A stretch of DNA of 64,000 bases, from NCBI GenBank assembly GCA_903909815.1, contig CAIVXG010000013.1, positions 946 to 64,945 on the forward strand. The letters are read 5' to 3'. Origin of the DNA: an uncultured beta proteobacterium. Its GTDB lineage: Bacteria > Pseudomonadota > Gammaproteobacteria > Burkholderiales > Burkholderiaceae_C. Positions 4,993 through 18,208 of the stretch are shown piece by piece. Made by a program: the position numbers and the translations under genes. Under the pieces are notes generated by a model. The model was not told where the DNA came from, ran no database searches, and saw only the letters and a program-made list of their open reading frames with translations. How positions within the stretch are numbered: position 1 is the stretch's first letter; the number at the start of each line of letters is the position of its first letter.

Positions 4993-5033
4993 GTCATTGC
5001 GACTGCCGCGTCGCTGGAGCTCCTCGAAATGAC
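4993..5033. repeat. solitary copy of the GTCATTGCGA...AATGAC palindromic (REP-like) element
   Basis: gtcattgcgactgccgcgtcgctggagctcctcgaaatgac. Its reverse complement resembles the GTCATTGCGAGGAGC..AGCGACGCGGCA units seen at 9101-9408, 11434-11676 and 18161-18208. Confidence 0.5.
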
Positions 5034-9100: not shown

Positions 9101-9150
9101 CGTCATTGCGATTGCCGCGCTCCTCGCGTTGGCAGCAGCGCGGCAATCCA
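9101..9150. repeat. REP-like hairpin (11-bp perfect inverted repeat ATTGCCGCGCT / AGCGCGGCAAT)
   Basis: gtcattgcgATTGCCGCGCTcctcgcgttggcagcAGCGCGGCAATccatgg, immediately upstream of the glnD start. Confidence 0.55.
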
Positions 9151-9168
9151 TGGTGGAGATCCGTAAAA

Positions 9169-9408
9169 GTCATGGATTGCCACGGCCTACGGCCTCGCAA
9201 TGACGAAGGCCCTGTCATGGATTGCCGCGGCCTACGGGCTTGCAATGACGTAGGCACTGTCATGGATTGCCGCGGCCTACGGCCTCGCAATGACGAAGGT
9301 CCGGTCATGGATTGCCACGGCCTACGGGCTCGCAATGACGAAGGCCCCGTCATGGATTGCCACGGCCTACGGGCTTGCAATGACGAAGGTACAGTCATGG
9401 ATTGCGGC
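9169..9408. repeat. 45-bp tandem repeat array, 5 full copies plus a partial one
   Basis: Units start at 9169, 9214, 9259, 9304, 9349 and 9394 (partial). Unit sequence: gtcatggattgccRcggcctacggSctYgcaatgacgWaggNNNN. Each unit is an imperfect palindrome (GGATTGCC..GCAATGAC). There are no spacers. Confidence 0.85.
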
Positions 9409-9412
9409 TGCG

Positions 9413-10219: not shown

Positions 10220-10356
10220 GGGGCGTGATTATCCCCGAGGCGGTGTGGGTGCGCCGCACGGGTGGATTCAACCCCACAGCTAAAATCCAACTCTCACGCG
10301 CGTCGCGCGAGATTCCTGCGAATCCGCCTCCTTCCCCCTTCATTGAGCTCACCACC

Positions 10357-13300
10357 GTGACCCTGCCTATCTCCACTTTCGACGCAGCCCCGCTGGGCAT
10401 CAACGCCTTGAGCGATTTTCGGGTGCAGCAATTGCTGCCGCGCCTGCAAGGCATCTGCCCCAAGGTCATTGGCGTGAGCGCCCGGTTTGTCCATCTGGTG
10501 GCGAGCGATCAGCCCTTGAACGCCGAGCAGCGCGGGCAGCTCGATGCGTTGTTGCGTTACGGTGAGCCCTACGCCGGATCGGCCGAGGGCGAATTGCTGG
10601 TGGTGACGCCGCGCTTTGGCACGGTCTCGCCTTGGGCGTCCAAGGCCACCGACATTGCGCACAACTGTGGGCTGGCGGTGCATCGCATCGAGCGCATCAC
10701 CGAATACCGCATCAGCCTGCATTCTGGCTTGCTGGGCAAGGCGAAGTTGAGCGCGGAGCAGCGCCTGCAGATCGCAGCGCTGCTGCACGACCGCATGACG
10801 GAGAGCGTGATGGCCGACCGGTCCCAGGCCTCGGGCCTGTTTGCCGCGCTGCCGGCTGCGGACATGGAGCAGATCGACGTACTCCAAGGTGGCAAGGCGG
10901 CGCTGGATCAGGCCAATATCCAGTTCGGGCTGGCGCTGGCCGCCGACGAGATCGACTACCTGGTGAGCGCGTTCCAGTCCCTGGGGCGCAATCCGACAGA
11001 TGTGGAATTGATGATGTTCGCGCAGGCCAACAGCGAGCATTGCCGGCACAAGATCTTCAACGCGCAATTCACGCTTGACGGTGTGGCGCAGGACAGGAGC
11101 CTGTTCGGCATGATCCGCCACACGCACCAGACCAGTCCGCAGCACATGATCGTGGCCTATTCGGACAACGCATCGGTGATGGAAGGCACGCAGGTGCAGC
11201 GTTTCGTTGCCAAAGCGCTTGACGCCAACAGCGCCCCCAGCTACGTCAAAGAAAGCGCCCTGAACCACGTGCTGATGAAGGTGGAAACGCACAATCATCC
11301 CACGGCGATCTCGCCTTTCCCCGGTGCCTCCACCGGCGCTGGCGGTGAGATCCGCGACGAAGGCGCCACCGGCCGTGGCTCCAAACCCAAGGCCGGCCTC
11401 ACCGGCTTCACCGTCTCCAAAATTGGCGGATCCGTCATTGCGAGGAGCGCAGCGACGCGGCAATCCATGGCGGAGGACCGCGGCGCAATTGGATTGCCGC
11501 GCTTCGCTCGCAATGACGAGTCAGAAAATAATTGGAATCTGACCCCAATTAACCCAATTGGCAAGGCCGGCCTCGCGGGTTTGACCGACTCCAAAATAGG
11601 CGGATCCGTCATTGCGAGCGAAGCGCGGCAATCCATCACGCCTGAAATGCCGCGTCGCTCTGCTCCTCGCAATGACGATGGTGCCAGCGACAAGCCGGAG
11701 CACATCGCCAGCGCGTTGCAGATCATGATCGAGGGGCCGCTGGGTGGGGCGGCGTTCAACAACGAGTTCGGGCGACCCAACCTGCTGGGCTACTTTCGGG
11801 AGTACGAGCAGGTCATCGACTCGGATGTGGACAGCATACGGCGCGGCTACCACAAGCCCATCATGATCGCTGGCGGTTTGGGCAGCATCGACGCCGGGCA
11901 GACGCACAAGATCGAATTCCCGGCCGGCAGCCTGCTGATTCAGTTGGGCGGACCCGGCATGCGCATCGGCATGGGCGGCAGCGCGGCGAGTTCGCTGGCC
12001 ACGGGCGCGAATGCTGCGAACCTGGATTTTGATTCGGTGCAGCGCGGCAACCCCGAAATGGAGCGGCGTGCGCAGGAGGTTATCAACCACTGCTGGAGCC
12101 TGCTCGAAGCCAATCCGATTCTGGCGATCCACGACGTGGGCGCAGGCGGCTTGAGTAACGCCTTTCCGGAGTTGACGAACGACGCGGGACGTGGCGCGCG
12201 CTTCGATCTGCGCGCCGTGCCGCTGGAAGAGTCGGGCCTGGCGCCCAAGGAAATCTGGTGCAACGAGAGCCAGGAGCGCTACGTGCTGGCGATTGCGCCG
12301 CAGTCGCTGGAACTGTTCCAGTCTTTCTGCGAGCGCGAGCGCTGCCCGTTTGCGGTGGTGGGCGTCGCGACCGAGGAGCGGCAGCTGATCGTGGCTGACG
12401 ACGCCTCGGATGCCCCGGTCAATATGCCGATGAATGTGCTGCTGGGCAAGCCGCCCAAGATGCACCGTGACGTGAAGTCGGTGCAACGCCAGTTCGCTCC
12501 CATCGATCTGAGCGGCGTGGACCTGCAACAGGCTGCGATCCAGGTGCTGTCGAGCCCGACGGTCGCGTCCAAGCGTTTTCTCATCACTATCGGCGACCGC
12601 ACCGTGGGCGGACTCACGCACCGCGACCAGATGGTCGGACCCTGGCAGGTGCCGGTGGCCGACTGTGCGGTCACGTTGGCCGACTACCAGGGCTTTGCCG
12701 GTGAAGTCATGGCCTTGGGCGAGCGCACGCCACTGGCGAGCTTGAACGCCGCCGCCTCGGGGCGCATGGCGGTGGCCGAGGCCATCACGAACCTGCTGGC
12801 CGCTCCCATCGAACTGCCCCGTGTCAAGCTCTCGGCCAACTGGATGGCGGCCTGCGGCGAGCCGGGCGAGGATGCCGACCTGTACGCCACGGTCAAGGCC
12901 GTGGGCATGGAACTCTGCCCCGCCTTGGGCATCTCGATTCCCGTGGGCAAGGATTCGCTCTCGATGCGCACGCAGTGGACCGACCCGGTGAGCGCCGAGG
13001 CCAAGAAGGTGACTTCGCCGGTGTCGCTCATCGTCACCGCTTTTGCCACGCTGGCCGACGTGCGCGGCACGCTCACCCCGCAACTTGACGCAACCGTTAC
13101 CGACACGACGCTGGTGCTGATCGATCTGGGCAAGGGCGCCAAGCGCATGGGCGCCAGCATGCTGGCGCAGGTGCTGGGTCAGGCAGGCGGCGAAGTGCCC
13201 GACCTGCACCAGCCACAGGACCTGATCAACCTGGTGAATGCTGTCAACGTGCTGCGCGCACAGGGTCGCATCCTGGCCTACCACGACCGCAGCGACGGTG

Positions 13301-14604
13301 GCCTGTTTGCGACGGTATGCGAGATGGCCTTCGCCGGCCACGTGGGCGTGTCGCTCAACGTGGATCTGCTCGTGACCGAGGGTGACGGCGTCTCCGACAG
13401 CCGCATGGACGTGGGCGACAGCAAGAACTGGGCGGGGCAGGTGGGAGCGAGGCGCGAAGATGCGACGCTCAAGGCCTTGTTCAACGAAGAGCTGGGCGTG
13501 GTGCTGCAGGTGCGCACGGATCAGCGCAACGATGTCATGCAGACGCTGCGCGAGCATGGTTTGAGCGCGCATAGCCATTTCGTGGGCAAGACCCGTCCTG
13601 AGAGCTCTGCGGTGAATTCAGGCAAGGGCGAAGTGCAGGTCTGGCGCGATGCCAAATGCATCTTCAGCGCCAAGCTGTCCGACCTGCATCAGGCCTGGGA
13701 CGCGTTCAGCTGGCGCATCTGCCAGCAACGCGACAACCCCCTGTGCGCCGACGCCGAGCACGCCCTCACCGGGGCGCCACTGGACCCGGGCCTGCACCAG
13801 CATCTGACGTTTGTGCCGCAGGCGCCAGCGCTGCTGTTGTCGCGCCCCAAAGTGGCGGTGCTGCGTGAGCAGGGTGTTAACTCGCAGATCGAGATGGCCT
13901 ACGCCTTTCATGCGGCGGGCTTTGACGCGGTGGATGTGCACATGACCGATCTGCAGACGGGCCGCGCCAGGCTGCAGGACTTCGCCGGCGTCGTGGCCTG
14001 CGGGGGTTTCAGCTACGGCGACACACTGGGCGCGGGCATTGGCTGGGCGCGCTCCATCACCTTCAACTCGGGACTGGCGGAGCAGTTTCGGGCCTTCTTT
14101 GCGCGCACCGACACCTTTGGTCTGGGCGTGTGCAACGGCTGCCAGATGTTTGCCGAACTGGCCGATATCATTCCCGGCGCACAACATTGGCCACGCTTCA
14201 CCACGAACCAGAGTGAACGCTTTGAAGCGCGCTTTTCCATGGTGGAAATCCTCGACTCACCGAGCCTGTTCCTGCAGGGCATGGCGGGCAGCCGGCTGCC
14301 GATCGCGGTGGCGCACGGTGAGGGCTTCGCCAACTTCGCGCACCGCGGCGATGCGGCGCAAGCGCTAGCAGCGATGCGCTTCGTGGACAACTTTGGCCAG
14401 GCCAGCGCGGCCTATCCCTTCAACCCCAACGGCAGCCCGGACGGCCTCACGGCTGTGACCACGGCCGACGGCCGCTTCACTGCCATGATGCCGCACCCCG
14501 AGCGGGTGTTTCGCAACATCCAGATGAGCTGGAGCGCAGGCCACACCGACAGCCACAGCCCCTGGATGCAGCTCTGGCACAACGCTCGGAAATGGGTCGG
14601 CTGA
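10357..14604 (+). CDS. purL: phosphoribosylformylglycinamidine synthase (large single-chain PurL)
   Basis: [12 protein letters not shown]-terminus, [30 protein letters not shown], and a C-terminal glutaminase domain (GVCNGCQM). GTG at 10357 is the likely start, because the track start at 10225 would leave only 5 bp to the divergent map gene. Contains an in-frame repeat insertion (next feature). Confidence 0.9.
11434..11676. repeat. four REP-like units in two convergent pairs, embedded in-frame in purL
   Basis: Units at 11434-11466 (fwd), 11491-11517 (rev), 11608-11634 (fwd) and 11649-11676 (rev), all GTCATTGCGAG..GCGGCAATCC type. They translate as [13 protein letters not shown] / [10 protein letters not shown] / [11 protein letters not shown] / [11 protein letters not shown]. 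Confidence 0.75.
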
Positions 14605-18160: not shown

Positions 18161-18208
18161 GGATGGATTGCCGCGCCTTCATTGCGAGGCCGAAGGCCGC
18201 AGCAGTCC
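18161..18208. repeat. REP-like element copy in the ppa / EF-G-like convergent gap
   Basis: ggatggattgccgcgccttcattgcgaggccgaaggccgcagcagtcc. It shares GGATTGCCGCG and TCATTGCGAGGCCG..GGCCG with the 9169-9408 units. Confidence 0.5.

Follow-up and report, generated by a model that had tools for sequence, protein, structure and literature searches.

Palindromic repeats of two families carried in frame within a purL loop of an uncultured betaproteobacterium

REPINs (Bertels and Rainey 2011; Nunvar et al. 2010, as cited in PMC3733652), which reportedly consist of two inverted REPs joined by a short spacer and folding as one long hairpin, are typically extragenic. Intragenic, in-frame palindromic repeats have been known since 2000, as exemplified by the Rickettsia palindromic elements (RPEs), which occur in essential genes and are translated (Ogata et al. 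2000, as relayed in PMC3733652); RPE-4 and RPE-6 are CGTC-tagged (PMC3733652). GTAG/CGTC REPs that lie in frame within genes, purL among them, have already been catalogued, with two REP dimers inside purL of Opitutus terrae (Oter_3711), double insertions in one ORF, and repeat clusters that encode 43-82 residues (PMC3733652; Di Nocera, De Gregorio, Rocco 2013). CGTC-tagged REPs are characterized by an unpaired CGTC, an 8-9 bp stem starting A-T, T-A, a loop of 4-5 nt, and a CCA tail; atypical loops are allowed in some families, and REPs of this type have been reported without a dedicated transposase (PMC3733652).

The purL gene described here is a further example of this phenomenon. It lies in a 64-kb stretch of DNA (hereafter the window) from an uncultured freshwater-type betaproteobacterium, and about 80 repeat-encoded residues have been added to one loop of its product. 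Two repeat families, termed here REP-A and REP-B, contribute to the loop, which is laid out as follows:

10357-14604, + strand: purL, phosphoribosylformylglycinamidine synthase (from its translation, the Pfam domains of the called gene, and the consensus N-terminus MTLHxTxFEGG in relatives)
11388-11424, + strand: native purL codons conserved in all orthologs, source copy of the duplicated flank (direct repeat D4)
11425-11529, + strand: insertion 1, 105 nt or 35 codons, made up of the 8-nt filler GGCGGATC, then REP-A dimer 1, then a tail AGTCAGAAAAT
11433-11467, + strand: REP-A unit 1 (REP1), long-centre form, 35 nt, CGTC ATTGCGAG GAGCGCAGCGAC GCGGCAAT CCA
11490-11518, - strand: REP-A unit 2 (REP2), short-centre form, 29 nt, tail-to-tail with unit 1
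11524-11559, + strand: REP-B unit, core AATTGGAATCTGACCCCAATTAA at 11530-11552, encoding NWNLTPIN and shared with relatives' purL
11562-11606, + strand: duplicated junction (D4), 37 nt of purL in a diverged copy (6 substitutions) and then the identical filler GGCGGATC
11607-11635, + strand: REP-A unit 3 (REP3), short-centre form, exact reverse complement of unit 2
11643-11677, - strand: REP-A unit 4 (REP4), long-centre form with a degenerate tail, 89% complementary to REP1
11678-11688, + strand: right-hand filler ATGGTGCCAGC, before native GAC AAG CCG GAG (DKPEH), placed by alignment with the related contigs L093 and L094

Homology suggests that purL starts at GTG 10357. Gene callers place the start at GTG 10225, which gives a 1459-aa product, and the frame has no stop codon from 10225 to 14604. 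The 1459-aa call is present in the protein collection, in which the 1415-aa product from GTG 10357 has no exact match. Translation bore out both the uninterrupted frame across the insert and the peptide that had been quoted from it. The insertion site corresponds to about residues 341-353 of Salmonella PurL, after a conserved strand of the FGAM-synthetase domain, in a loop that is variable in length by nature. In Salmonella PurL, 13 residues separate the two conserved blocks, in agreement with the figure of about 13 given for E. coli. The catalytic C-loop was considered as the insertion site and rejected, as it comprises Salmonella residues 444-470. In an AlphaFold2 model of residues 1-640 built with 53 sequences, pLDDT is below 50 from residue 305 on, across the entire FGAM-synthetase part and with the flanks included, which is too poor for placing the loop. 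On the opposite strand, 11521-13578 contains an antisense ORF of 685 aa, an instance of the long accidental ORFs that are frequent in this DNA.

The four palindromic units anticipated in purL are present as two tail-to-tail REP-A dimers, at 11433-11518 (dimer 1) and 11607-11677 (dimer 2), and for the exact 29-mer shared by REP2 and REP3 the number expected by chance, from shuffles, is 0.00. The insert segments measure 105 nt and about 126 nt, contain no stop codon, and leave the conserved flanks in frame. The NWNLTPIN segment between the dimers was at one point taken for native purL sequence, a view that was abandoned: it is a REP-B unit, belonging to a second, AT-rich repeat family (37% GC over 11519-11561). 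When metagenomes were searched with a pattern made from the supposed native loop codons, intergenic copies of the 23-mer were returned and no purL, which identifies that sequence as itself a repeat. The original prediction of a single element, inserted and duplicated, holds for insertion and duplication, with the correction that two separate REP-A insertions flank a probably older REP-B unit, giving the loop three layers.

REP-B occurs in frame in the same purL loop in three related lineages, as an inverted pair in L093 and L094 and as a single unit in L074, and it is also found intergenically in relatives. On the related contig L081, copies at 12522-12544 (-) and 13347-13369 (+) surround a Y1_Tnp gene at 12590-13306 that matches PF01797 (E = 3.5e-11), an association that comes from relatives and not from the genome of the window. 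Read in reverse complement, REP-B includes GGGGTCAG and fits the published GGGGWSAS motif. Taken together, these features suggest that the REP-B unit predates the REP-A insertions and represents a family of RAYT/TIRYT-flanking repeats.

Alignment with orthologs, proposed earlier as a check, found the insert in none of 80 Burkholderiales purL genes; the span from GRG to FNNEFGRP is 32-61 residues in orthologs that match the stricter pattern, versus 115 here. The closest relative, L093, has no insert and flanks that are 82.8% identical, and insertion 1 is missing at the same position in L093, L074, L094, and L050. Protein searches around the loop matched only fragments without the insert. This loop comparison covers lineages other than the nearest sister lineage (P0124-P0126), whose contigs L091 and L092 start downstream of the loop. 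Intermediate loop states are preserved among related lineages, some free of repeats, others with a single REP-B unit or with two as a pair.

The 174-bp duplication put forward in the original prediction survives as a spacing and not as a length. Direct repeat D4 pairs 11388-11444 with 11562-11618 at a spacing of 174 nt, and is a 57-nt copy of the junction at 89% identity, whose filler GGCGGATC occurs solely at the two purL REP-A junctions. Because the repeat spans purL, non-REP filler, and REP head, the left copy at the second dimer was made after insertion 1; that left side probably arose through local copying. A simple 174-bp tandem duplication was rejected, as the second copy has no REP-B, its long and short units stand in flipped order, 7 nt and not 22 nt separate them, and its right flank differs; the right-hand filler ATGGTGCCAGC is not derived from the first copy, and the window contains no other informative copy of it. 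A simple inversion of dimer 1 as the origin of dimer 2, likewise rejected, fits the unit order and not the spacer or flank. The duplicated purL flank carries 6 substitutions in 37 nt, while REP2 and REP3 are perfectly complementary, a disparity that needs either relaxed drift combined with hairpin-templated correction or a more complex history. Regarding the hallmarks of MITEs, inverted arms are present, and a candidate target-site duplication for insertion 1 (TCCAAAAT / TCAGAAAAT) was dropped as unproven, being imperfect and equally readable as the remnant of an L093-type spacer, TCGCAAAAT.

Beyond purL, REP-A occupies three intergenic locations, which bring its total to 12 units in 64 kb versus 0-2 in shuffles:

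9102-9410, - strand: intergenic REP-A locus between glnD and map
5000-5033, - strand: single unit between the ribonucleotide reductase and thiolase genes
18178-18208, + strand: single degenerate unit downstream of the pyrophosphatase gene

The first of these had been assigned to the purL palindrome family (near 9101-9408), correctly so. The array is at 9102-9384. A single forward unit is accompanied by five complete reverse units and a truncated sixth in a 45-bp tandem array, and the locus is polymorphic in copy number across samples, with one additional unit in three of five related contigs. A search with translated REP-A returned mainly spurious ORFs over REP arrays, together with one glycosyltransferase that carries an in-frame copy.

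We consider it likely that the purL loop represents selfish palindromic DNA passively carried as coding sequence. The loop would first have gained REP-B, an AT-rich unit whose counterparts in relatives border an IS200-like (RAYT/TIRYT-type) transposase gene. A tail-to-tail dimer of CGTC-tagged REP-A, with its 8-nt filler, would next have inserted just 5′ of REP-B. Later, local copying, possibly primed at the microhomology CAAG(G)CCGG, would have placed purL flank, filler, and REP head immediately 3′ of REP-B, followed by another REP-A dimer with its units in flipped order. Given that purL is needed for purine synthesis, only in-frame, stop-free outcomes would survive, and insertions of these two lengths would pass such a filter; each insert can be read without a stop in three of six frames, which makes in-frame survival plausible without special selection. 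The roughly 90-residue loop would then be translated and probably disordered, affecting the enzyme little or not at all, and the expansion is probably tolerated and neutral. It is also conceivable, if rather doubtful, that the co-duplicated purL flank is a trace of how CGTC-type REP dimers spread, locally through template switching or copy-choice at stalled hairpins and not through transposition, the REP-B hairpin making the loop a recurrent landing pad. Such a landing pad would explain why three lineages have different repeat configurations at the same codons.

The properties of the insert also bear on whether it has acquired a function. Strong RNA hairpins were expected in the coding region, and the predicted fold of 11380-11700 indeed reaches -178.3 kcal/mol versus -113.3 +/- 5.8 for shuffles (z = -11.2), with predicted values of -49.8 and -32.2 kcal/mol for dimers 1 and 2. 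This extreme predicted stability, the perfect complementarity of REP2 and REP3 despite the diverged duplicated flank next to it, and an insert length that is constant in every full-length copy while the adjacent intergenic REP-A array varies would all suit an exapted element, in which the loop, or a nested mRNA/ssDNA hairpin of roughly 245 nt, has been recruited for purL translation, mRNA stability, or an interaction surface. We nonetheless regard exaptation as improbable: the closest relatives do without the insert, an Rfam scan of it gave no match, no sense-strand terminator or promoter was found within it, and contig L090 carries a nonsynonymous ATG -> CTG variant inside it. Constant length would arise equally well under purifying selection against frameshifts, and published surveys, which find REPs in numerous unrelated proteins, speak against functional constraint (PMC3733652). 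A more technical concern is that short-read assemblers stitched genomic REP copies into purL. Contigs L088, L089, and L090 end inside REP units (at 11611, 11613, and about 11517), which marks the region as hard to assemble, yet even these broken contigs hold the junction sequences, the duplicated flank included. At least 13 contigs from independent metagenome assemblies encode the same 1459-aa product, which makes a one-off misassembly unlikely; identical insert structure recurs in assemblies of at least three ENA assembly-accession series; and the two insertion lengths preserve the frame. Furthermore, the copy number of the intergenic array varies between the same samples, which indicates that the assemblies are able to resolve repeat variation, and L086 and L087, from different assemblies, show 2 SNPs relative to the window, neither of them within the insert. 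An assembly artefact is therefore very improbable, the insert is fixed in the population, and the central proposal that REP-type elements were inserted and partly duplicated in frame in the purL loop is sustained by this recurrence as well as by the 80 orthologs.

Long accidental ORFs such as the antisense one described above lend some color to the notion that purL here has lost its function or is decaying, its open frame being an accident of high GC content. We assign this reading as little credence as an artefact, for all conserved PurL motifs that flank the insert are intact in the same frame across 4.2 kb, population variants of PurL differ by 1-2 residues only, and map and glnD are syntenic with purL as they are in L093, the closest relative with the upstream flank read. 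Removal of the segment after transcription or translation, as an intron, intein, or bypassed element, has the strong secondary structure in its favor and nothing else; it is the least credible of all these readings, given that there is no Rfam intron match, that the insert is built wholly from units of two dispersed repeat families, and that sequence inspection reveals no intein-like blocks in the 90 residues.

Understood as passively carried selfish DNA, the locus would offer a natural example of protein-length evolution driven by palindromic repeats, with about 80 codons from two unrelated families in one loop of a large and conserved enzyme, and a defined place for testing the tolerance of PurL to foreign hairpin-forming sequence. 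The duplicated junction hints, in a small way, at how CGTC-type REPs, for which no transposase is known, may multiply. On a practical level, the insert explains metagenome contig breaks inside purL in the host species, and the over-long PurL in automated annotation. What the present analysis adds to the original prediction is the REP-B unit between the dimers, the recognition of REP-A as CGTC type, and the probable local copying of the left side of the second dimer.

A full-text literature search for the repeat sequence strings returned unrelated primers only. The RPEs share with this locus in-frame insertion in a protein gene, both inserts here being stop-free; they differ in taxon and sequence family, and their hosts are obligate intracellular bacteria whereas the present host is apparently free-living, with translation that would follow from the open frame. 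As in REPINs, purL dimers 1 and 2 are inverted doublets, each predicted to fold as one hairpin, and the placement of REP-B on both sides of the Y1_Tnp gene in L081 is the classic RAYT arrangement; the purL dimers differ in being intragenic. REP-B also resembles the TIRYT-associated TIR repeats (PMC3733652, Figure 9) in its GGGGWSAS-type motif and in flanking a tyrosine transposase gene, a likeness judged from motif and gene context, under which the transposase may be either RAYT or TIRYT.

The closest correspondence is with the CGTC-tagged REPs, a published type that REP-A fits as far as its sequence tells. All four purL units and most intergenic array units start CGTCATTGC, and CGTC is unpaired in the minimum-free-energy fold of the short form. 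The stem begins with AT (outer ATTGC/GCAAT) and is made of 5 + 3 bp with an internal loop between, and the tail GCAAT-CCA is present in units 1-3 and the array, unit 4 being degenerate (TTTCA). A tblastn search of the 64-kb window with a RAYT protein gave no match. REP-A resembles the published type in forming dimers and in lying in frame within a known protein. In contrast to the fixed 4-5 nt loop of the published type, its centre varies over 6-12 nt (CGAAGC, GAGCGCAGCGAC, GCCGTAGGCC), and the short form has an apical loop of 3 nt. Most CGTC families come from alphaproteobacteria, but the present host belongs to the betaproteobacteria (Comamonadaceae), and the purL dimers are tail-to-tail, whereas head-to-head dimers predominate in the catalogue (PMC3733652). 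The O. terrae purL has its repeats at other insertion sites, and the present locus is set apart from the catalogued CGTC-tagged REPs by a unit of a second family between the dimers and by a piece of the host gene that was duplicated along with the repeat.

The purL open reading frame encoding PurL (10225-14604, + strand, by translation) harbors palindromic repeats within its reading frame. Public gene calls start it at GTG 10225 (1459 aa), and homology favors GTG 10357 (1415 aa), the 44 extra residues encoded by 10225-10356 having no counterpart in relatives. The original prediction singled out about 90 residues between two conserved PurL blocks and attributed them to four palindromic units of one family, also present in an intergenic array; the positions, the pairing, and the intergenic copies are all borne out. 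A two-part pattern search for this CGTC-tagged family, REP-A, recovers 12 units in the window, compared with 0-2 in shuffled sequences: four in purL, six between glnD and map, and two single units elsewhere.

11433-11467, + strand: REP-A unit 1, long-centre, purL
11490-11518, - strand: REP-A unit 2, short-centre, purL
11607-11635, + strand: REP-A unit 3, short-centre, purL
11643-11677, - strand: REP-A unit 4, long-centre, purL
9102-9384: six REP-A units, glnD-map intergenic region (pattern search)
5000-5033: single REP-A unit (pattern search)
18178-18208: single REP-A unit (pattern search)

Reverse complementarity is perfect between units 2 and 3 (29 nt) and reaches 89% between units 1 and 4 (35 nt). 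The strong RNA hairpins anticipated within the coding region are likewise predicted by folding of 11380-11700 (-178.3 kcal/mol, z = -11.2) into a nested hairpin some 245 nt long, formed by pairing of units 1 and 4 and of units 2 and 3; dimer 1 (units 1 and 2) and dimer 2 (units 3 and 4) are each predicted to fold alone as well. Within the purL insert, no sense-strand terminator or promoter was detected, and no Rfam family matched.

The insert recurs across assemblies. The methionine aminopeptidase protein encoded next to purL is found on many metagenome contigs, and at least five of the places listed for these map-bearing contigs hold the 1459-aa purL product, three variants of which occur on 2, 2, and 9 contigs by exact-sequence look-up. 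L086 and L087, contigs of two separate assemblies, show only 2 SNPs relative to the window over all 4380 nt of purL, both outside the insert. Three further contigs break off exactly within REP units, at 11611/11613 in L088 and L089 and near 11517 in L090, as short-read assemblies usually do at repeats. Although they end there, all three retain the junctions, and L090 carries an ATG-to-CTG variant within the insert. The neighboring 45-bp REP-A array (9160-9410, glnD-map) comprises five complete units in the window, L086, and L089, and six in L087, L088, and L090. The assemblies can therefore distinguish repeat copy numbers; the purL insert nonetheless keeps a constant length among the samples in which the array varies, which renders a one-off misassembly unlikely. 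For this species, the tandem array itself amounts to a VNTR-like marker that varies between metagenome samples; the distance between the genes in one further record suggests an even shorter array there.

The host belongs to the Comamonadaceae. Among 80 Burkholderiales purL loci, scanned at one genome per species, none carries REP-A in the purL loop, and no REP-A unit was found in the approximately 800 kb surrounding them. The loop (GRG to FNNEFGRP) spans 115 residues in the window versus 32-61 in relatives where the stricter pattern matched. The loop of one of these loci, L074, reads SKINWNLTPIDSYGKP, which suggested that the window loop consists of two separate insertions around an NWNLTPIN segment at first taken as native. 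A metagenome search with the supposedly native NWNLTPIN codons retrieved the 23-mer AATTGGAATCTGACCCCAATTAA from intergenic positions in several unrelated contexts and not a single purL, and the native assignment was dropped. The 23-mer is a dispersed, AT-rich palindromic repeat of Comamonadaceae-like genomes, REP-B, with a small predicted hairpin; its surroundings have 37% GC inside a gene of 65% GC.

11530-11552: REP-B, window purL
L074, 4066-4088: REP-B, purL loop
L093, 6835-6925: REP-B pair, purL loop
L084, 2692-2748: REP-B inverted pair
L081, 12522-13369: REP-B around a Y1_Tnp gene, next to gltB
L082, L083, and L085: further REP-B copies

REP-B lies in frame in the same purL loop in at least three related lineages. 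The closest relative found, L093 (flanks 82.8% identical), holds an in-frame inverted REP-B pair and no REP-A; the noisier contig L094 has the same pair, and L050 a degenerate version. Palindromic repeats have therefore entered this loop recurrently, and in the window it has three layers, a presumably older REP-B unit with REP-A dimers on both sides. L094, a JGI contig, is chimeric or noisy and is used qualitatively only: part of purL (2605-2801) recurs inverted at its start (1-600), and the contig has many frameshifts. In a sister lineage (at least 90% identical), the purL contigs L091 (1-115) and L092 (1-45) begin at a second variable loop, near window 12470-12500, with extra in-frame sequence GGLGARSAGTGMDSNVHEDSEHRATTPPVHAVGRTPV containing an imperfect inverted repeat that may be another palindromic insertion. 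A partial PurL of 587 aa from a Ramlibacter MAG (P0129) covers the loop region twice in an internal tandem repeat of about 190 residues, which probably arose when that MAG was assembled.

By alignment, the insertion site corresponds to approximately residues 341-353 of Salmonella PurL, where 13 residues are found, ruling out the catalytic C-loop (444-470). An AlphaFold2 model of residues 1-640 is confident for the N-terminal and linker domains alone and uninformative for the loop; we infer that the site tolerates insertions from the large natural length variation across relatives rather than from structure. Both insertions are divisible by three, and three of the six frames of each are stop-free, so that in-frame survival requires only selection against purL knockouts. 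The insert is most likely a neutral passenger.

In insertion 1 (11425-11529, 105 nt), an 8-nt filler GGCGGATC precedes a tail-to-tail REP-A dimer, in which a 22-nt spacer separates a leading long-centre unit from a short-centre unit; the tail AGTCAGAAAAT follows. Insertion 2 measures approximately 126-135 nt, its boundary depending on the relative chosen; it opens with 37 nt of purL in a diverged copy (6 substitutions) and an identical filler copy, continues with a dimer whose order is flipped (the short-centre unit first, then a 7-nt spacer and the long-centre unit), and closes with 11 nt of unexplained filler before native GAC AAG CCG. A candidate target duplication of 8-9 bp at insertion 1 was unconvincing after comparison with L093. 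The proposed 174-bp duplication survives as a direct repeat at 174-nt spacing and not in its length: the copied junction is 57 nt (11388-11444 versus 11562-11618, 89% identity).

This repeat runs from purL sequence across the filler into the REP head, so that the second junction must be a copy of the first, made once insertion 1 was in place; at the window's other REP-A loci the filler is not a component of REP-A. A plain 174-bp tandem duplication does not account for a second copy that is devoid of REP-B and whose spacer and right flank differ. Had dimer 1 simply been inverted, the unit order would fit and neither the spacer nor the flank would, and independent transposition leaves the copied purL flank unaccounted for. 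As each of these simpler models fails on a detail, we state only that insertion 2 would have involved a local, template-dependent copying event. The junction copy begins at CAAGGCCGG, and the native downstream sequence CAAGCCGG presents microhomology.

The finding is real, and its original interpretation essentially right. REP-A shares the defining features of the CGTC-tagged REP type, namely the CGTC tag, AT-starting stem, and CCA tail; this type includes Rickettsia RPE-4 and RPE-6 and is reported without an associated transposase (Di Nocera et al., PMC3733652). REP-A deviates by its variable centre and tail-to-tail dimers. For REP-B, the 238-aa L081 gene with a copy at both ends matches Pfam Y1_Tnp (IS200-like, E = 3.5e-11), the arrangement described for REP-associated tyrosine transposases (RAYTs), and GGGGTCAG in the REP-B reverse complement fits the GGGGWSAS motif of TIRYT-associated repeats (PMC3733652). 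Translated REP-A matches mostly spurious ORFs over REP arrays and one glycosyltransferase (P0264, 290 aa, PF00534) with an in-frame run of REP-A-type peptides (GLPRYARNDD...), so real proteins elsewhere are also decorated by such repeats. Intragenic in-frame REPs have been catalogued, including double insertions and clusters encoding 43-82 residues, and Opitutus terrae purL holds two REP dimers (PMC3733652). In-frame palindromic repeats in a housekeeping gene are already known, and the present case is unusually elaborate; worth keeping are its three-layer, two-family hotspot and its duplicated junction, the latter a hint that a REP type without a known transposase may spread locally by replication.
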